Source: an uncultured Candidatus Saccharibacteria bacterium
Lineage (GTDB): Bacteria > Patescibacteriota > Andersenbacteria > UBA10190
Reading direction: 5' to 3'
DNA length: 64,000 bases
Assembly: GCA_964610055.1 (NCBI GenBank)
Contig: CAZSUC010000001.1
Span: 351,994 to 415,993 of the forward strand
A model generated the notes under the pieces. That model had not been told where the DNA came from. It worked only from the letters and a program-made list of their open reading frames with translations, and did not search any database. Of this stretch, positions 1,250 through 11,388 are shown piece after piece; the stretch's first letter is position 1, and the number at the start of each line of letters is the position of its first letter. Position numbers and translations under genes: made by a program.

Positions 1250-2026
1250 TTAATTGATTTTTACAATCTCGCCCGCGGTTGTTTCCACTACCGCGGGTTT
1301 GTGTAACGCTTGCATTCGTTTGATAAAATCTTGTCCATCTGATCCTCCGTCTAAAGCTAAGCGTGGCTCATATTTGAGGCCACGTTCTTCCACTAGCTCA
1401 CTTTGCATCGCCTCGTCCACTTCTGGGCTTGGTATGTAAGGGGGATTACTAACTATAAAATCAACCTTGTCTGGCTGAATTGGTTGTTCAAAATCACCGC
1501 ATCGTATGTCAATTTTTTCTTCTACCTTATATTTTTCAACATTCCGCTGCGCTGTTTGAATTGCGGTCTCGGAAATCTCGGTGGCGATAATCTTTTTGAT
1601 CATGGTGCCGCCTTCCAACGCTAACGTAATCGCAATACACCCACTTCCGGTTCCTAAATCCGCTACCACAATCGGCTGACCCTTGCTTTGATATATTTTT
1701 TTTATTTCATCTAAAGCTCTGGTTACCAACTCTTCTGTCGCCGGGCGGGGGATTAGGACGCTTGGATTAACTAAAAAAGTTCGGCCATAAAACTCTTGAT
1801 AACCTAAGATATAGGCCAACGGCTCGCCTTGTTTCCGCCGCTCACAATCACGCTCCATAGCTAACCATATTTTTTCTAACACCTGCTCTTCGCTGTGTGT
1901 ATATAGCCACGCCGCTTCATTCTGATTTAGGTGGTGCAGCGCTATCCGTTCCGCATCTAAACGCGGCGCGTCCGTAGCCCCGTTTAATATTTCTTGAATC
2001 CTCCGAACTGCTTGGCCAATAGTCAC
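1250..2026 (-). CDS. prmC: release factor glutamine N5-methyltransferase PrmC/HemK
   Basis: Contains the GTGSGCIAI SAM-binding motif and the NPPY catalytic motif (VSNPPYIP). It overlaps the prfA stop by 4 nt, the classic prfA-prmC operon arrangement. Confidence 0.85.
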   Translation of the reverse strand: MTIGQAVRRIQEILNGATDAPRLDAERIALHHLNQNEAAWLYTHSEEQVLEKIWLAMERDCERRKQGEPLAYILGYQEFYGRTFLVNPSVLIPRPATEELVTRALDEIKKIYQSKGQPIVVADLGTGSGCIAITLALEGGTMIKKIIATEISETAIQTAQRNVEKYKVEEKIDIRCGDFEQPIQPDKVDFIVSNPPYIPSPEVDEAMQSELVEERGLKYEPRLALDGGSDGQDFIKRMQALHKPAVVETTAGEIVKIN

Positions 2027-3102
2027 GACTGTGTATTTATCGCTTGGATTTTTATTTGTTTATCCGCTTCTTGCAGAGCAGCAAAGATTGGCTCCCACGC
2101 GCCCTGCATCACTCCTTCAATATTGCTCCATGATTGTTTAATCCGATGATCCGTAATTCGGTCTTGCGGAAAATTATATGTCCTAATTTTTTCCGAACGA
2201 TCACCTGTACCCACTTGTTGCCGTCGTTCGCTCGCTTCTTTTGATCGTCGCTCTTCTTCCTCTGCCGCCAATAAACGACTCCGCAAAATTTTCATTGCCT
2301 TTTCTTTATTCTTGAATTGGCTGCGTTCATCTTGCACAGCCACCACCGTATTTGTTGGTAAATGCGTAATTCTAATCGCCGAACTAGTCTTATTCACTTT
2401 CTGTCCACCAGCACCTCCAGATCGATACGTATCAATCCGCAAATCTTCTGGTCGAATAATAAAATCCTTTTCCGCCGCTTCTGGCATTACTGCCACAGTA
2501 ATCGTTGACGTGTGAATTCGTCCCATCTTTTCAGTTTCCGGCACTCTCTGAACTCGATGCACTCCTCGCTCAAATTTCAATACTCCAAAAACATTCTCTC
2601 CGGTAACTTCCGCAATCACTTCTTTAAATCCATTTTGCTCGCTTAATGAAGTGCTGACAGTATGCATGTTCCAGCGATGCTGTTCGGCGTAACGGGCATA
2701 AGCACGAAACAACTCCGCTGCAAACAAGGACGCCTCATCTCCACCTGCGCCCGCCCGAATTTCTAAAATTACGTTTCGGCTGTCACGCGGATCACGTGGT
2801 AATAAAGCCGTTTCAATTTCTTGTTCTAGTCGTGTAATTTCTTGGCGTAAACGTTCTCCGTCTTCTCGCGCTAATTCTTTTAATTCTTCGTCTTGCTCAT
2901 GTAGTACCATTTCTTCTGCTTCCTTGGCATCACGTAATCCTTTTTCGCGTTGCGTTAATAAATCAGCTAACTGGCTTTTTAACACATGCTCTCGAGATAA
3001 TTCCTGCATTTTTTCCGCATCCAGACTTACAGCCGGATCGCTCATCTGAGTATTCAGGCGCTCAATGTCTTGCTTTATTTGATTTAAATCCGGGTATTCC
3101 AT
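2023..3102 (-). CDS. prfA: peptide chain release factor 1
   Basis: 359 aa with the GGQ motif (SGGAGGQKVN). It aligns closely with E. coli RF1 (…RIHTS…VAVMPE…RSGGAGGQ…) and is co-oriented with prmC. Confidence 0.9.
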   Translation of the reverse strand: MEYPDLNQIKQDIERLNTQMSDPAVSLDAEKMQELSREHVLKSQLADLLTQREKGLRDAKEAEEMVLHEQDEELKELAREDGERLRQEITRLEQEIETALLPRDPRDSRNVILEIRAGAGGDEASLFAAELFRAYARYAEQHRWNMHTVSTSLSEQNGFKEVIAEVTGENVFGVLKFERGVHRVQRVPETEKMGRIHTSTITVAVMPEAAEKDFIIRPEDLRIDTYRSGGAGGQKVNKTSSAIRITHLPTNTVVAVQDERSQFKNKEKAMKILRSRLLAAEEEERRSKEASERRQQVGTGDRSEKIRTYNFPQDRITDHRIKQSWSNIEGVMQGAWEPIFAALQEADKQIKIQAINTQS

Positions 3103-3744: not shown

Positions 3745-4503
3745 ATGCCCAAAGATACTAAGTCTCCCGTCAACACCTTCGAGTTGCCGGATTTAATCAC
3801 CATGTTGGAAGCCGGTGTCCATTTCGGCCACGAACGCAGCAAACGTAATCCTAAAATGGAACCATATATTTATACTTTGCGTAATCGCATTGCGATTTTG
3901 GATCTCGAAAAGACCCAAGCTAAACTCAAAGAAGCCATTGATTTTCTCCAACGCATTGCCAAAACAACCAATCAAGAAATTCTCTTTGTTGGTACTAAAC
4001 GTCAAGCTCGAGATATCGTGCGTCGACACGCTGAATCTATCGGCATGCCATACATCACTCAACGTTGGCTGGGTGGTACCTTAACTAACTTCCGCACCAT
4101 TCTCAAAAGCGTTGAAAAATTGGACGAACTGAAATCCCTAGCCGAGTCTCCTCAAGCCCAAAAAATGACCAAGAAAGAACGGTCAGTGATGCGCAAAGAA
4201 ATCGAACGTCTTGAAGAAGTGTTAGAGGGGATTATGAATATTCGTGCTTTGCCAGCCGCGATCTTTATCGCCGGTATTCAAGATGAAAAATTAGCTTTGC
4301 GAGAAGCGGCTCGTATCGGCATCCCTGTTGTTGGTATTGCTGATACCAACGCTGATCCTAGTGCTGTCAAATATCCTATTCCTGGTAATGACGACGCCGT
4401 GCGTTCTTTGGATCTTCTGGTTGGCACTATTGCTCGGGCAATTGCAGAAGCTCGTGGTATTACGATTAAAAGCAAGACCACTCCAACTCCTGTCGCTGAT
4501 TAA
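3745..4503 (+). CDS. rpsB: 30S ribosomal protein uS2
   Basis: MLEAGVHFGHERSKRNPKM… is the canonical S2 N-terminus. An AAGGAG Shine-Dalgarno sequence lies 6 nt upstream. tsf follows. Confidence 0.95.
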   Translation: MPKDTKSPVNTFELPDLITMLEAGVHFGHERSKRNPKMEPYIYTLRNRIAILDLEKTQAKLKEAIDFLQRIAKTTNQEILFVGTKRQARDIVRRHAESIGMPYITQRWLGGTLTNFRTILKSVEKLDELKSLAESPQAQKMTKKERSVMRKEIERLEEVLEGIMNIRALPAAIFIAGIQDEKLALREAARIGIPVVGIADTNADPSAVKYPIPGNDDAVRSLDLLVGTIARAIAEARGITIKSKTTPTPVAD

Positions 4504-4537: not shown

Positions 4538-5122
4538 ATGGCTACTCTCGAACAAGTGAAAGAATTACGCCGCCGAACTGGTTGCGGCATCGTTGATTGC
4601 AAACAAGCGCTTGAAGAAGCGCAAGATGACATTGAAGCTGCCATCACTGTTTTACGTAAAAAGGGGATTGCTAAAGTCGCTAAAAAAGCTGACCGTGAAA
4701 CTCGTGAAGGCATGGTTGCTTCATATACCCATAGCAATGGCCAGTTAGTCGCTATGGTTTCTATTCTCTGTGAAACTGATTTTGTCGCACGTAACGAACG
4801 GTTTCAGCAATTAGGCCGCGACATCGCTATGCATATCGCTGCGTCTGATCCGGCCGTTGTGCATCCGGGCGATATGCCGGAAGCAGCTTTAGAAGCTGAA
4901 CGCGCCATCGCCTTAGAACAGGCTAAAGCTTCTAATAAACCAGCTGACATTCAAGCGAAAATTGTTGAAGGCAAACTAAAAACATTTGCCGAAGAGCGTG
5001 CTTTGATGACCCAAGCTTTTGTTAAGGATCCTAGCAAAACTATTCAACAAATTATTAACGAAGCTATCCAAGAACTAGGGGAGAATATTTCTATCGGAGA
5101 TTTTCATCGTCTCTCCATCTAA
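4538..5122 (+). CDS. tsf: elongation factor Ts (short form)
   Basis: ATLEQVKELRRRTGCGIVDCKQALEEA is the EF-Ts UBA-like N-terminus, followed by the dimerisation core. This is the conserved rpsB-tsf pair. Confidence 0.9.
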   Translation: MATLEQVKELRRRTGCGIVDCKQALEEAQDDIEAAITVLRKKGIAKVAKKADRETREGMVASYTHSNGQLVAMVSILCETDFVARNERFQQLGRDIAMHIAASDPAVVHPGDMPEAALEAERAIALEQAKASNKPADIQAKIVEGKLKTFAEERALMTQAFVKDPSKTIQQIINEAIQELGENISIGDFHRLSI

Positions 5123-5146
5123 ATAGCAAACAAAAACAGAAAATAT

Positions 5147-5182
5147 CGCCCCGCCACCCCCTTGGCGGGGCGAACTGTTTTT
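5147..5182 (+). terminator. rho-independent terminator after tsf
   Basis: GC hairpin cgccccgcc/ggcggggcg followed by a TGTTTTT run. Confidence 0.6.
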
Positions 5183-5227
5183 GATAAGCTATTCACTAAC
5201 AACCTTTTTGCATCCTTCGTTTTTGCC

Positions 5228-6388
5228 ATGCTGTATAACCTTATGCCACCAACTATACTCCTCCTTTCTCTCGGTGGTGTTATGGTTATCCTTTCACGCG
5301 GTGTTCTGAGGATGCGCAAAGCTGAATTTAATGCCAGCATAAAATCGTACGGAAACAGTACTACTACAACAGTCAACTCCTCAAAAAATATTGGCCGTCT
5401 TTTTCGCCCTACCCATAAAGGTGTTCAAGCGATTTCTAATCGCGCCACAGGCGCCATGTTAGCTCTCAAACAAAATAGCCAAGAAATTTCCCAAGGATTT
5501 AGTGGCCTTAAGTCTCGCTTATCTAATCGACGCATTGCGCGCAAACAAGATTCGCCTGCTCCTGCTCCTGAGCCAACAGAGACTGTTGCGACTTCGCCTG
5601 CCAAAGGAGAGCTAGTCATGCCTGAATCTGGTTGGCGGGATAAATTTTCTTCCTCTGTGAGTAATGCTTTTGGAAGCGCGCGTCATCGCGCTCATAAGTC
5701 AGTCACTGCTCTTAAAGAACGTCGACAACAGCGTCAAATTGATCAAGAATCAAACACAAAAGATACTCCTGCTCCTACCCCTAAAAAACTATCCATCAAA
5801 ACAAGATTAGTCCAATCTCGTGTCAGCACTGAAGAATCGCGTTTATCATCCTCCGAATCTTCTGGTTCCGGGCTTTCTCTTTCAGCTGTGGTTAAAAAAG
5901 CCGTAACTGCTTCTGTCTCGGCTTCAACCGCACCAACTCCCGCTGAACCAGTAACTCTTTTAGGACAAGCCCAAGCCGCTTTAACTGCTAAAGATTTTAA
6001 AAAAGCTGAATTTTTTGTTTTGAATCATATTACCAAGCACACCAAAGACTGCGCTGCTTACATGTTATTGGGTCAAATTGCCTTAGCTCAGTCTAATTGG
6101 AGTGAAGGCTTGGAAATTTTCGAACAAATTATTTCTTGGAATGATCAGCAGCCAGGTGCTTACTCTGCTTTAGGATATGCTGCTTGTCGGGCGGGAAAAT
6201 TAACTCGTGCCATCCAAGCCCTACAGCGAGCGCATGAAGCTGAACCTGAGAATATTGCTGTTCTCCAAGATTTATATATTATTGCTCGTCGCATGGATAA
6301 TCCTGCATTACAACATTCAATCTCTAAAAAATTAGAGGCCCTGAATGCCCCTGTCGTCTCATCGCACGCTGACGTTGTCGCTGTTTAA
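5228..6388 (+). CDS. membrane-anchored TPR-repeat protein (hypothetical)
   Basis: The ORF is open from 5162, but the tsf terminator overlaps 5147-5182, so a start at Met 5228 or 5243 is more likely. It has an N-terminal transmembrane segment, an S/T/P-rich linker and C-terminal TPR-like repeats (…AYMLLGQIALAQSNWSEGLEIFEQII…AYSALGYAACRAGKL…). Confidence 0.5.
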   Translation: MLYNLMPPTILLLSLGGVMVILSRGVLRMRKAEFNASIKSYGNSTTTTVNSSKNIGRLFRPTHKGVQAISNRATGAMLALKQNSQEISQGFSGLKSRLSNRRIARKQDSPAPAPEPTETVATSPAKGELVMPESGWRDKFSSSVSNAFGSARHRAHKSVTALKERRQQRQIDQESNTKDTPAPTPKKLSIKTRLVQSRVSTEESRLSSSESSGSGLSLSAVVKKAVTASVSASTAPTPAEPVTLLGQAQAALTAKDFKKAEFFVLNHITKHTKDCAAYMLLGQIALAQSNWSEGLEIFEQIISWNDQQPGAYSALGYAACRAGKLTRAIQALQRAHEAEPENIAVLQDLYIIARRMDNPALQHSISKKLEALNAPVVSSHADVVAV

Positions 6389-6883: not shown

Positions 6884-7618
6884 CTAGTCCTGACATTCCC
6901 AGTTTTCCATAGTCTGCTGAAAAATGTCATTAATATAGTTAAAGAAAGTGCCAAACTTCTGATCCGGAAACGGACCCTCGTGCAAATCCCTTTCCGTACG
7001 CAGAGATTCAAGGCTCATCCGCAGCTGTGCCGGCGTCGTTGTGGCTTTAGCGTCCCTACGATTCAAAGCAGCTTTAATCCCTGCCTTAGTCACCGTCCAC
7101 AAGCAATCTGCTTCCCGCAATGCCCGTGGTAAAAATCCCGGCGGCAAACGCACTCCCAATTCAGGATCGTCATGAATAGCAATCAGGTCGACGATAGCCT
7201 GAATCTGATCTTGGCCGTACCAACCAGCGCTTGGCGCGGAGCGTAGCATCAGCGATGCCGCCCGTGCGCATTTCTGCATATGAATCTGAACATCCTGATT
7301 CGGGCAAACATCATGTAACAACGCCGCAGTTAAACCTACCATAGTCTCGGGCCAACTACAGTGATTTGCTACTGCCAGCCTCGCCATCATGTGCGTCACG
7401 AACAAGTGATGCTCAACCGGATTATTGGCCTCGGGATGGAGCCAATATTGATCCGTTAAAGCCATCATGGTTAATCGATGCAAGATTTCTTCCAATTTCC
7501 TAACATCATTAACCAAGCCAACTTCAGCTGCATGAATCGGTCGCAAAGCCTCACTTAAAAGAGCTTTCAAGACCTGGTCATTCGGACGGTCGTAATTCAA
7601 CCGCACTACATATGCCAT
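6884..7618 (-). CDS. HD-domain phosphohydrolase family protein
   Basis: 244 aa with H…HD metal-binding motifs (LLHDVC, IAIHDDPELG). Confidence 0.55.
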   Translation of the reverse strand: MAYVVRLNYDRPNDQVLKALLSEALRPIHAAEVGLVNDVRKLEEILHRLTMMALTDQYWLHPEANNPVEHHLFVTHMMARLAVANHCSWPETMVGLTAALLHDVCPNQDVQIHMQKCARAASLMLRSAPSAGWYGQDQIQAIVDLIAIHDDPELGVRLPPGFLPRALREADCLWTVTKAGIKAALNRRDAKATTTPAQLRMSLESLRTERDLHEGPFPDQKFGTFFNYINDIFQQTMENWECQD

Positions 7619-7998: not shown

Positions 7999-8020
7999 AT
8001 AATGTCAAAATTCCATCTTG

Positions 8021-8093
8021 TCCGAGGGGTAGGAGTTGAACCTACTTGGAACGGTTTTACAGACCGTCGCATAAGCCGTTCTGCCACCCTCGG
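8021..8093 (-). tRNA. tRNA-Tyr (anticodon GTA), class I: 5-nt variable loop, C1:G72, A73, no encoded CCA
   Basis: Manual fold of the reverse complement: acceptor CCGAGGG/CCCTCGG, anticodon stem ACGGT/ACCGT with loop CTGTAAA (GUA), T-arm GTAGG-TTCAACT-CCTAC, variable region tccaa. Total 73 nt. Confidence 0.75.
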
Positions 8094-8153
8094 CTTGTTG
8101 TAGATGATACCGGACAATACTTGGATCGCCAAGTATCTTTTCTACCAAACGGG

Positions 8154-8225
8154 AGCCAGCTGTCGGATTTGAACCGACGACCTTCGCTTTACAAAAGCGT
8201 TGCTCTGCCACTGAGCTAAGCTGGC
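8154..8225 (-). tRNA. tRNA-Thr (anticodon TGT)
   Basis: Reverse complement is GCCAGCT-TAGCTCAGTGGCAGAGC-A-ACGCT-TTTGTAA-AGCGA-AGGTC-GTCGG-TTCAAAT-CCGAC-AGCTGGC-T. It aligns with E. coli tRNA-Thr, including the shared 27:43 mismatch. Confidence 0.85.
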
Positions 8226-8306
8226 ACGGTCACGGCCGTTAACCGCCATGAAACATCACTATAGTCAAATTATGGCTAAAAATCAAACTTCTGTTATTCT
8301 TAACCC

Positions 8307-9374
8307 ATGGACGATCGCAACCTTATTATTAAGCGCCTTATTTCTAACAGCGCCGAAGTTATCACTCCTGAAGAATTTAAGCAGCGCCTTTCTTCCGACC
8401 AACCTTTAACCCATTATATCGGCTTTGAAATCTCCGGTTACGTCCATATCGGACAGGGGATTATGAGCGCCCTTGTTATCAAGGACCTGCAGGCTTTAGG
8501 CGTTAAGTGCACCATTTGGTTAGCTGATTGGCATACCTGGATTAACGACAAATTAGACGGCACCAAAGCAACTGCTCAAAAAATTGGGACTGGCTATTTT
8601 ACTGAAGCGCTCACGTCCGCCTTGCTCTGCGTTGGCGCAGATCCTGATCAGGTTGAATTTCGTTTAGCCTCTGACTGGTATGCTCGCGATGGCCTGGCTT
8701 ACATGGAAACCCTGATCAAAGTTGCTCGGCACACTACCTTAGCGCGCGCTTTGCGCAGTGTTAGTATTATGGGTCGGGAAGCGGGGGAAAATATTGAATT
8801 AGCTAAAACTTTTTATCCCGCCATGCAAGCGGCTGATATTTTTTACCAAAATATCGACATTGCCCACGCCGCGATGGATCAACGCAAAGCTCACGTTGTC
8901 ATGCGCGATGTTGCTGATCATGTTCAGCCTGACAAACCTAAACCGATTGCCCTACACCATCCTTTAATTGACGGTCTTACGGGCGAAGCTAAGATGAGCA
9001 AATCCAAACCGGATTCCGCTGTGTTTATTCATGACGAACCGGATGATATTCATCGTAAAATTAACAAAGCCTATTGTCAGGAAAAAGACACTCAAAAAAA
9101 TCCTATTCTTAACTGGACAAAAAACATCCTATTCTGGAACCGCGTTCATCCTTTTGTTATTGAACGCAAACCTGAACACGGCGGAACCTTGGAATTTTCA
9201 GACTATTCTCATTTGGAGCAAGCTTTTGCAGCCGGGGAGTTACATCCTATGGATCTTAAAGCGGCTGTTGCTGCCGAAATTGTCGCTCTCTTAGCTCCAG
9301 CTCGGTCTCATTTTGCTCAGCCAGAAATCGCTGCTAAAAAAGCCGAACTCGACAAAGTTCTTGCAAGTCGTTAG
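8307..9374 (+). CDS. tyrS: tyrosyl-tRNA synthetase, archaeal/eukaryal type
   Basis: 355 aa with a HIGH-like motif (YVHIGQ) and KMSKS. Collinear with M. jannaschii TyrRS: YIGFE(P/I)SG, YP(I/A)MQ..D, KAYC, PEKFGG/PEHGGTLEF, ELHPMDLK.AVA.E. It lacks the bacterial TyrRS C-terminal S4 domain. Confidence 0.85.
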   Translation: MDDRNLIIKRLISNSAEVITPEEFKQRLSSDQPLTHYIGFEISGYVHIGQGIMSALVIKDLQALGVKCTIWLADWHTWINDKLDGTKATAQKIGTGYFTEALTSALLCVGADPDQVEFRLASDWYARDGLAYMETLIKVARHTTLARALRSVSIMGREAGENIELAKTFYPAMQAADIFYQNIDIAHAAMDQRKAHVVMRDVADHVQPDKPKPIALHHPLIDGLTGEAKMSKSKPDSAVFIHDEPDDIHRKINKAYCQEKDTQKNPILNWTKNILFWNRVHPFVIERKPEHGGTLEFSDYSHLEQAFAAGELHPMDLKAAVAAEIVALLAPARSHFAQPEIAAKKAELDKVLASR

Positions 9375-9390
9375 TTTTATTACATATTGC

Positions 9391-9465
9391 GCCGATGTAG
9401 CTCAGTGGCAGAGCAATTCCATGGTAAGGAATAGGTCGGGAGTTCAATCCTCCCCATCGGCTCCA
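9391..9465 (+). tRNA. tRNA-Thr (anticodon GGT), CCA encoded
   Basis: GCCGATG acceptor, D-arm TAGCTCAGTGGCAGAGC, anticodon stem ATTCC/GGAAT with loop ATGGTAA, T-arm GGGAG-TTCAATC-CTCCC, 3' CATCGGC-T-CCA. Confidence 0.9.
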
Positions 9466-9502: not shown

Positions 9503-11053
9503 ATGCGTTGGTTACCTCTCATTTACATTATTCTCCTCGGTGGCGTCTTAACCGGCGGCACTATTTGGGTTTATCTTAATCGCAACCCTGTCGCTGCTCC
9601 CGTCTCTGATACCCCTGTTACGACTTTCCAGACTGCCAGCCACCAAACTTCGTTGCGAGTAATTGCTCGGCTTACCGACAATACTTCCTCGCGCGCCGTT
9701 ACTTGTTATCAATCTCAATGCACCACTCAAGAATTTCCAGCCGATGTCTTTACTTATGCTGTTAATGATGGGGAAGCATGGTATTACTATCTTCCCACTC
9801 AAACTGTTACCAAGCATGCGCAAACTTCCGTTACTCCGCTGCCGCTTAATCTCAGCCAATTATCCGGCACTTTAGTCCGTACTGTTTCTGACGCTGATCC
9901 AGTCACTGTCATTGGCCCAACTGACTTAACCGCTCCGCGCGGTCTCTTTGTCAGTCCCGATAGTCAACAACTCGCTTTTTTCCGCGACAATATTCACGAC
10001 TCTTCTCAAAAATTAACTGAACTTTGGCTCTACAATTTTTCTTCCGGCAATGTTCAGCTCATTGGAGAAAACTATTACCAACCCGATATTCGTTCTAACG
10101 TCAGATGGAACAGCGCTTCTAATTACCTCTATTTCATCGGTGATAATGGGCCGCAATCGTCATCCCAGGATGATCTCGAACTTTTATTAGTTTCTACTGA
10201 GTCTCCCGGGACTAAAACGGCTTTCAGCCAAGTCCCTTGGGATGATCTGGTTGATAATTTTAATAATCTTCAAATCGATCTTTCCTCAGATGGGCAAAGC
10301 CTAGTGTATGTTGGCAAATCATTTTTAGGCGCGAGCATTCTTACTGTTATAACTCCCACCGGCACGCAAAAAACCACTATTCGCAGTGCCGTACCTTTTG
10401 TGCAATGGATTGAAGATGGGCGTCTCATATATGCCGTCCAAGATCAGCAAGGCTTCACTTTTTGGCAGCGCAGTTCTGATAACACCCACCGTTTTTTAGC
10501 GCGCCGTCCCGGTGCCGTCACTTCTGCTCGCAGCGACTTAAGCGGGGAATACGTCGTCTTCGCCGTTAATGAATCGCCCGGCATCACTCGCTTCTATTCC
10601 TTGCGTCTCGCTGACGGCACGGTTACCGATGAAGGTAAGATTGCTAACAACAACAGCGAGGTTAGTTTAGCCTATATCCGCCAGGAATTAAGCCTTGCGC
10701 AAGAAACAGCCACCACAACCGCTGCTTATGCTGATAATGAAATCGCCGCTTTTATTGACGCTAATCTTACCAACATTGCCGGTCTCGGCGCACAGCCTCG
10801 CCGTTTTATTCCCACTGATCTGATTAATAACTATTTTCTTGATTACTTGAACTCGCAGGGTCAAGAACAGCGAATTCTGCTGAAAATTAACGATATTCTA
10901 CATAATGAATGGGTTATTAAAGGCCGCTATACCCCTGTTAACGGAACCTGGCGCAAAACTCAAGGTGGGGGCATAGCTGACCCCAAACCCGTTCGTTTGT
11001 ATGAGTGGGAAGATTCTCTGCAGCAATGGATTCAAAAAGATCTCAAAATCTAA
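9503..11053 (+). CDS. membrane-anchored PD40/TolB-like beta-propeller protein (hypothetical)
   Basis: 516 aa with an N-terminal transmembrane helix and repeated PD40-like motifs (FVSPDSQQLAFFRDN, LSSDGQSLVYVG). Confidence 0.45.
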   Translation: MRWLPLIYIILLGGVLTGGTIWVYLNRNPVAAPVSDTPVTTFQTASHQTSLRVIARLTDNTSSRAVTCYQSQCTTQEFPADVFTYAVNDGEAWYYYLPTQTVTKHAQTSVTPLPLNLSQLSGTLVRTVSDADPVTVIGPTDLTAPRGLFVSPDSQQLAFFRDNIHDSSQKLTELWLYNFSSGNVQLIGENYYQPDIRSNVRWNSASNYLYFIGDNGPQSSSQDDLELLLVSTESPGTKTAFSQVPWDDLVDNFNNLQIDLSSDGQSLVYVGKSFLGASILTVITPTGTQKTTIRSAVPFVQWIEDGRLIYAVQDQQGFTFWQRSSDNTHRFLARRPGAVTSARSDLSGEYVVFAVNESPGITRFYSLRLADGTVTDEGKIANNNSEVSLAYIRQELSLAQETATTTAAYADNEIAAFIDANLTNIAGLGAQPRRFIPTDLINNYFLDYLNSQGQEQRILLKINDILHNEWVIKGRYTPVNGTWRKTQGGGIADPKPVRLYEWEDSLQQWIQKDLKI

Positions 11054-11314: not shown

Positions 11315-11388
11315 GGGGGTGTGGTCTAATGGTATGACAACGGTCTCCAAAACCGTTAGCGGGGGTTCGATTCCCTCCACCCCTGCCA
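11315..11388 (+). tRNA. tRNA-Trp (anticodon CCA), CCA encoded
   Basis: Acceptor GGGGGTG/CACCCCT with G1·U72 wobble, anticodon stem ACGGT/ACCGT with loop CTCCAAA, T-arm GGGGG-TTCGATT-CCCTC, 3' G-CCA. Near-identical in layout to E. coli tRNA-Trp. rpmG followed by tRNA-Trp is a conserved arrangement. Confidence 0.9.

Follow-up and report, generated by a model that had tools for sequence, protein, structure and literature searches.

An archaeal/eukaryal-type tyrosyl-tRNA synthetase beside a class I C1:G72 tRNA-Tyr, the probable housekeeping tyrosine pair of an Andersenbacteria-lineage bacterium

We analysed a 64,000-nucleotide stretch of contig CAZSUC010000001.1 (positions 351,994 to 415,993, assembly GCA_964610055.1, deposited as an uncultured Candidatus Saccharibacteria bacterium), hereinafter the window. 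The window encodes a tyrosyl-tRNA synthetase (TyrRS) of archaeal/eukaryal type and a short, class I tRNA-Tyr whose first pair is C1:G72 and whose discriminator is A73. The two genes are divergent, their 5' ends are 213 bp apart, and tRNA-Thr(UGU) lies between them. Very probably, this pair is the working, housekeeping tyrosine system of a bacterium in the Candidate Phyla Radiation (CPR), from the Andersenbacteria lineage, that acquired an archaeal-type TyrRS and has a tRNA of matching identity.

The identity of tRNA-Tyr divides the domains of life. Bacteria use G1:C72, a long variable arm and an S4 domain on the enzyme, while archaea and eukaryotes use C1:G72; this textbook barrier is the basis of orthogonal pairs in genetic code expansion. 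Bacteria that naturally follow the archaeal rule indicate that the link between identity set and domain is not fixed. The phenomenon is already known. An archaea/eukarya-type TyrRS with C1-G72 tRNA-Tyr was described in CPR bacteria by Mukai, Reynolds, Crnkovic and Söll (Life 2017, PMC5370408), and the legend of their Figure 2 includes Andersenbacteria in its list of major bacterial groups that have this TyrRS. The present finding is correct but not new: both the phenomenon and the lineage that shows it had been published.

The synthetase is of archaeal/eukaryal type

The open reading frame (ORF) of tyrS contains the strings NKAYC, PEHGGTLEF and ELHPMDLKAAVAAE. The equivalog model for archaeal-type TyrRS, NF006330 (PRK08560), gives 367.3 bits, where the cut-off is 220, and residues 8-344 of the protein align to profile positions 7-336 of 342. 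With the bacterial tyrS model TIGR00234 the score is 101 bits, below its cut-off of 113.8, and the match covers only the catalytic half. Assignment to tryptophanyl-tRNA synthetase (TrpRS) failed as well, with 106.4 bits for TIGR00233 (cut-off 176.75) and all remaining trpS models far under their cut-offs. Pfam finds tRNA-synt_1b as the sole domain (residues 31-329 of 355), followed by 26 residues, and detects no S4 domain in the protein. A first-pass annotation, made from the letters alone, had called the protein an archaeal/eukaryal-type TyrRS without S4, and these results bear it out.

Matches in the PDB rank in the order archaeal, eukaryal and, far behind, bacterial. Specifically, the best match is Pyrococcus horikoshii TyrRS (2cyc, E 4e-90, residues 5-338 aligned), followed by 7fg6 (6e-88), Aeropyrum pernix TyrRS (2cya, 9e-68), a protist TyrRS (~1e-63), Methanocaldococcus jannaschii TyrRS (1j1u, 2e-49), and the cytoplasmic enzymes of human (1e-30) and yeast (8.5e-26). 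The bacterial Thermus thermophilus TyrRS (1h3e) reaches only 6e-12. The first-pass label 'M. jannaschii-type' is imprecise; the protein is nearer to the long form of Pyrococcus and DPANN-like archaea, as 2cyc and 2cya outrank 1j1u.

The class I motifs are HIGQ (residues 47-50) and KMSKS (229-233), and the tyrosine pocket is formed by Y37, Y170, Q174, D177 and Q192, which correspond to M. jannaschii (Mj) Y32, Y151, Q155, D158 and Q173. In MjTyrRS, Arg174, Lys175 and Arg132 read C1-G72, and Asp286 reads G34 (Tsunoda et al. 2007, PMC1934993). The readers of C1:G72 are kept in the window protein as R150, R193 and K194 (Mj R132, R174 and K175), and those of G34 as H313 and D316 (Mj H283 and D286). 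KMSKS, the pocket positions and both sets of reading positions are invariant in 82 of 82 aligned sequences, namely the window protein, an identical copy from an independent assembly (Logan, below) and 80 homologues, the best of 381 found in a search of one genome per GTDB species. The MjTyrRS sequence used for the alignment is 100% identical to 1j1u_A.

The tRNA-Tyr carries the matching identity nucleotides

ARAGORN calls a tRNA-Tyr (gta) at 8020-8093 on the minus strand, and the Rfam tRNA model matches 8021-8093 of the same strand at 55.1 bits (E 3.9e-9). The minus strand reads CCGAGGG-UG-GCAG/AACGGCUU/AUGC-G and then ACGGU-CUGUAAA-ACCGU-UCCAA-GUAGG-UUCAACU-CCUAC-CCCUCGG-A. Direct reading gives a class I tRNA of 73 nt with anticodon GUA, A37, first pair C1:G72 and discriminator A73. 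The variable loop, flanked by the stems of the anticodon and T arms, is the 5-nt UCCAA, and CCA is not encoded in the gene. The first-pass annotation had read the class, the first pair, the discriminator and the anticodon in the same way.

Folded by itself to minimum free energy, the tRNA gives no cloverleaf, and the structure was judged by covariance model and covariation in place of thermodynamic folding. In an alignment of 14 tRNA-Tyr sequences, all 20 pairs of the cloverleaf are paired in 100% of cells, and compensatory changes on both sides occur at 16 stem pairs. This is reached by none of 500 shuffles, and slid registers come nowhere close.

The window tRNA-Tyr has a 3-bp D stem with G13•A22. 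Such a D stem (R13•A22) together with A37 was considered as a sign of bacterial descent and was dropped as non-discriminating. The identity of the D-arm averages 0.61 to 74 class II bacterial tRNA-Tyr, and is 0.52 to M. jannaschii and 0.56 to E. coli. Yeast cytoplasmic tRNA-Tyr has the same D-arm and A37. M. jannaschii tRNA-Tyr differs from that of the window in having G37 and a Watson-Crick D stem of 4 bp.

Of the six tRNAs that ARAGORN calls in the window, only one is a tRNA-Tyr. Similarly, a phmmer search of all six-frame ORFs detects no second class Ic synthetase in the 64 kb, consistent with the first-pass statement that this is the only TyrRS of the window.

The tRNA type follows the enzyme type across loci

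Besides that of the window, the loci fetched around the homologues contain 17 tRNA-Tyr genes within 3 kb of an archaeal-type TyrRS. All 17 have C1:G72 and A73; 16 of them are short, and the remaining one, in L073, has kept a variable arm. No class II tRNA-Tyr is present in these loci, which span ~5-7 kb around the 80 homologues. As a control, metagenome contigs were searched for tRNA-Tyr by anticodon loop and T-arm, with any length of the variable region. At least 69 of the 80 tRNA-Tyr in this control set are long, class II molecules with G1:C72 and A73, while the short ones (6/6) have C1:G72 and A73, and one long tRNA-Tyr (L161) has C1:G72. Short tRNA-Tyr genes with enough flanking sequence adjoin a TyrRS of NF006330 type (L110, L115 and L099). 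The class II control L121 adjoins a bacterial TyrRS of TIGR00234 type (369 bits), which is the canonical combination.

A long variable arm is still present in the tRNA-Tyr of L073 (2529-2612, 84 nt) and that of L161 (4332-4423, 91 nt), although both have C1:G72 and A73; the two may be intermediates between the bacterial class II form and the arm-less form.

Two further loci of this survey have unusual features. The TyrRS ORF of L110 (1800-3392, minus strand) comprises 531 residues from stop to stop, with the NF006330 match at residues 161-523. This points to a possible N-terminal extension of ~160 residues, which may correspond to the B2-domain fusion described by Mukai et al. (PMC5370408). 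L099 has a synteny like that of the window (tRNA-Thr(UGU), tyrS, tRNA-Thr(GGU), tRNA-Trp); its tRNA-Tyr (1940-2040, minus strand) has an intact 3' half and a degenerate 5' half unable to pair, and is not called by ARAGORN. Gene decay or a fault of the assembly may account for this.

The locus is conserved in Andersenbacteria-like relatives

The TyrRS of the six closest relatives (L002-L007) is 59-71% identical to that of the window. L002, L004 and L006 are labelled Andersenbacteria or Anderseniibacteriota, two of the six are labelled Saccharibacteria, and L005 is an unclassified 'bacterium' metagenome-assembled genome (MAG). In all six, tRNA-Tyr and tRNA-Thr(UGU) adjoin tyrS; tRNA-Thr(GGU) is also kept in five and tRNA-Trp in four. 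The order Tyr/Thr(UGU)/tyrS/Thr(GGU) is common to L001-L005 and L007. The tRNA-Tyr genes of the relatives are short, measuring 71-73 nt up to the discriminator, and 6/6 have C1:G72 and A73; the survey of related genomes proposed by the first-pass annotation returns the same tRNA architecture throughout. In a neighbour-joining (NJ) tree, the Andersenbacteria TyrRS clade has 100% bootstrap support, and the window groups with L002 at 82%. The synteny and the clade support indicate that the locus was inherited vertically within the CPR lineage.

Because CPR bacteria and DPANN archaea occur together, and cross-contamination of composite genomes happens at times (PMC5370408), a DPANN fragment mis-joined into a bacterial contig during assembly or binning was considered. 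However, the same protein, in an identical 5.5-kb locus with the same tRNA order, is present in an independent Logan assembly (SRR8925805), and the synteny is shared by the six other MAGs; a chimera is therefore excluded. In addition, genes of bacterial type flank the tyrosine locus on both sides within a few kb on one contig, and homologues are present in chromosome-level bacterial assemblies. An artefact of this kind is effectively refuted.

Probably a housekeeping pair rather than an added one

The position of the tRNA gene is that of a housekeeping unit. The gene directly upstream of tRNA-Tyr, on the same strand and separated from it by 58 nt, is tRNA-Thr(UGU). This is the thrU-tyrU order of E. 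coli, whose operon is annotated as thrU(UGU)-tyrU-glyT-thrT(GGU)-tufB, and the first-pass assignment to the thrU-tyrU position is right for the Thr(UGU)-Tyr order.

The following course is the best-supported account of the locus. An ancestor of the lineage would have acquired an archaeal/eukaryal-type TyrRS by lateral transfer. An enzyme without S4, the domain that binds the variable arm, would have no use for a long variable arm. From the residues kept, it is predicted to read C1:G72 via Arg150, Arg193 and Lys194 and G34 via Asp316. The tRNA-Tyr would supply the matching set (C1:G72, A73, GUA, no arm) from inside a bacterial Thr(UGU)-Tyr unit near tyrS, and the outcome would be a functional replacement of the bacterial tyrosine system. 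Specifically, the enzyme appears to be of archaeal origin, the tRNA would have been remodelled from a bacterial tRNA-Tyr and not imported, and the pair would be the sole tyrosine pair of the cell, a replacement and not an addition.

Several points weigh against this account. The visible part of the genome is 64 kb, and a bacterial and an archaeal Trp pair coexist in a CPR genome of Beckwithbacteria (PMC5370408). The deep nodes of the TyrRS tree, which bear on the donor and the direction of transfer, have bootstrap values of 12-14%, and the deep groupings as a whole reach 12-46%. The probable placement of the host in the Andersenbacteria lineage of the CPR is based on the TyrRS locus and its synteny, rather than on rRNA or marker genes.

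The first two of these points speak for an added orthogonal pair, in which a bacterial TyrRS and a class II G1:C72 tRNA-Tyr would be encoded elsewhere in the genome, and the archaeal-type pair would be accessory, for example in stress or antibiotic resistance. However, the tRNA-Tyr sits in the housekeeping tRNA-Thr(UGU)-tRNA-Tyr unit, the locus is vertically kept in six related MAGs, and the 64 kb hold neither a second class Ic enzyme nor a second tRNA-Tyr. Class II tRNA-Tyr is likewise absent from the loci around the 80 homologues, and the one second class Ic match that was followed up, in L009, is a TrpRS. CPR genomes are small, and duplicate synthetases are rarely kept in them. Because the locus is conserved across the clade, a housekeeping system fits better than an accessory pair, and we consider an added pair highly improbable. 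The first-pass annotation had favoured whole-system replacement or co-evolution over an added orthogonal pair, and the conservation in six MAGs together with the independent assembly supports that choice.

A wider distribution and the possible import of a cassette

The archaeal-type TyrRS is also widespread in bacteria outside the CPR. About 50 of the 80 best genome matches belong to Candidatus Dormibacterota, including the chromosome-level assemblies OY970355.1 and OY970307.1 (3.2-3.3 Mb). Several matches belong to Chloroflexota, including a 4.3-Mb chromosome, OZ244848.1. The matches outside the CPR fall within L008-L081 (e.g. L009, L012, L013, L016, L019, L021, L057, L059, L076, L077, L080 and L081), and the TyrRS of the one Dormibacterota representative scanned, the chromosome of L009, scores 393 bits with NF006330. 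A second TyrRS-like tblastn match beside the tyrS of L009 was identified as a bacterial TrpRS (4558-5574, minus strand; TIGR00233, 302 bits), convergent with the archaeal-type TyrRS.

In basal Dormibacterota and Chloroflexota, a short tRNA-Tyr that has C1:G72 and A73 occurs immediately upstream of, and on the same strand as, tyrS (L012, L013, L016, L021, L027, L059, L076 and L081). The same tRNA-Tyr–tyrS cassette is present in a Peribacteria MAG (L050, 2894-4110) and on a groundwater metagenome contig (L115, 1-967). The hosts reported by Mukai et al. belong to the CPR only (PMC5370408), and a search of the available literature for archaeal-type TyrRS in Dormibacterota or Chloroflexota, or for papers citing Mukai 2017, returned nothing relevant. 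The occurrence in these two phyla may be newer than the published CPR finding and is a modest lead.

These cassettes, and the short distance of 213 bp between tRNA-Tyr and tyrS in the window, are what could be expected if a single tRNA-Tyr–tyrS unit had brought in both enzyme and tRNA, either from archaea or from some other bacterium, and had displaced the native tRNA-Tyr. In the window, however, the tRNA is on the opposite strand from tyrS, behind tRNA-Thr(UGU) and in the thrU-tyrU order. Its 17-nt T-arm is common to many canonical class II bacterial tRNA-Tyr. The arm-bearing C1:G72 tRNA-Tyr of CPR bacteria (L073, L161 and those of Mukai 2017, PMC5370408) look like intermediates of a change in place. 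These same observations argue for in-place remodelling of the bacterial gene, and the evidence is decisive for neither side; we regard import of a cassette as rather unlikely. More speculative still, and unlikely, is the idea that the tyrosine identity set spread between bacterial phyla as a two-gene tRNA-Tyr–tyrS cassette, beyond the CPR and into free-living Dormibacterota and Chloroflexota with genomes of 3-4 Mb, so that the window locus would be a rearranged copy lodged in the thrU-tyrU unit. If this were true, bacteria would be able to pass on an entire tRNA identity rule by horizontal transfer.

In the first NJ tree, the Andersenbacteria clade lay beside a large clade of Dormibacterota and Chloroflexota, and both of these beside DPANN archaea with Peribacteria and Moranbacteria. 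A sister relationship of the Andersenbacteria clade to the Dormibacterota/Chloroflexota clade has little support (bootstrap 13.5%). The only reliable nodes are the monophyly of the Andersenbacteria clade and the grouping of the window with L002.

Comparison with known systems

The window resembles the CPR system of Mukai et al. in the type of the enzyme, the C1:G72 identity of the tRNA and the probable CPR host. That study reports C1-G72 tRNA-Tyr both with and without a variable arm, many of which keep it (PMC5370408), whereas the arm is gone in the window tRNA-Tyr and in all six relatives surveyed. The layout of the locus, with Thr(UGU)/Tyr divergent from tyrS and Thr(GGU) after it, is absent from the main text of that article in the parts used here. 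The article proposes several independent transfers involving DPANN archaea. A 2023 review of tRNA identity contains no discussion of the CPR.

The archaeal pairs (2cyc, 2cya and 1j1u) share with the window a collinear protein, the same residues for reading C1:G72, G34 and tyrosine, and a class I tRNA with C1:G72 and A73. They differ in that the host of the window is bacterial, and the window enzyme differs from theirs in having HIGQ in place of HLGH and His in place of Phe261. With the canonical bacterial system, represented by E. coli tyrU, the window tRNA shares GUA, A73, the loop CUGUAAA and the place after tRNA-Thr(UGU). In contrast to that system, the first pair is inverted, the arm is missing, and the enzyme lacks S4 and fails TIGR00234. 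E. coli has been engineered by replacing its TyrRS/tRNA-Tyr with archaeal or eukaryal pairs (refs 17 and 18 in PMC5370408). Such strains are likewise bacteria that live on an archaeal/eukaryal-type tyrosine pair, and they are synthetic, whereas the pair of the window is natural and inherited within a lineage.

Bacteria of this kind could supply new orthogonal pairs, a point already made in 2017. The window adds a minor contribution, namely a clean, contiguous 64-kb bacterial context, the organisation of the locus and the loss of the arm in every member of the clade surveyed. Its study also yields the lead that the same system exists outside the CPR.

Neighbouring genes and minor features

The features around the tyrosine locus are listed in Table 1. 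The contig context is bacterial, as the first-pass annotation had held. Besides rpsB, tsf and the release factor, Pfam identifies a RluA-type pseudouridine synthase, a Ham1 NTPase and MurB. tRNA-Trp has the bacterial identity base G73; therefore, only the tyrosine system carries archaeal identity.

Table 1 Positions of the tyrosine pair and neighbouring features in the window
Feature	Position	Strand	Basis
Class 1 release factor (PCRF + RF-1)	2023-3102	minus	Pfam
rpsB	3745-4503		Pfam
tsf (EF-Ts)	4538-5122	plus	Pfam
tRNA-Tyr(GUA)	8021-8093	minus	ARAGORN, Rfam, direct reading, covariation
tRNA-Thr(UGU)	8152-8225	minus	ARAGORN; Rfam 69.4 bits
Divergent intergenic region, 81 bp, between the tRNA-Thr/Tyr unit and tyrS	8226-8306		Consensus scan
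tyrS, archaeal/eukaryal-type TyrRS, 355 aa	8307-9374	plus	ORF, Pfam, NCBIfam, PDB, residue alignment
tRNA-Thr(GGU)	9391-9465	plus	ARAGORN, Rfam
516-aa ORF, synteny marker, not a functional part	9503-11053	plus	tblastn
tRNA-Trp(CCA), G73	11315-11388	plus	ARAGORN; Rfam alignment end ...CACCCCUG

In the divergent intergenic region, the consensus scan gives candidate sigma-70-like matches on the minus strand at 8286-8258 and 8297-8269, and a further candidate on the plus strand at 8300-8329, which runs into the start of tyrS. On the strand of tyrS, tRNA-Thr(GGU) begins 17 nt past its stop codon, and the two genes are probably co-transcribed. The arrangement at 9375-9465 suggests an mRNA-tRNA co-transcript that would need processing by RNase P/Z.

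The 516-aa ORF, whose N-terminus is hydrophobic and which matches no Pfam family, is kept at the same position downstream of tyrS/tRNA-Thr(GGU) in L002-L005 and L007, with 30-35% identity (tblastn). A 244-aa ORF on the minus strand (6884-7618) has LLHD...IHDD motifs that resemble those of an HD-type phosphohydrolase; it has no Pfam match at E<=1e-5 and no homologue within the fetched stretches of related loci. EF-Ts comprises only 194 residues, with the EF_TS match at residues 28-185, a short form that fits a reduced, CPR-type genome.

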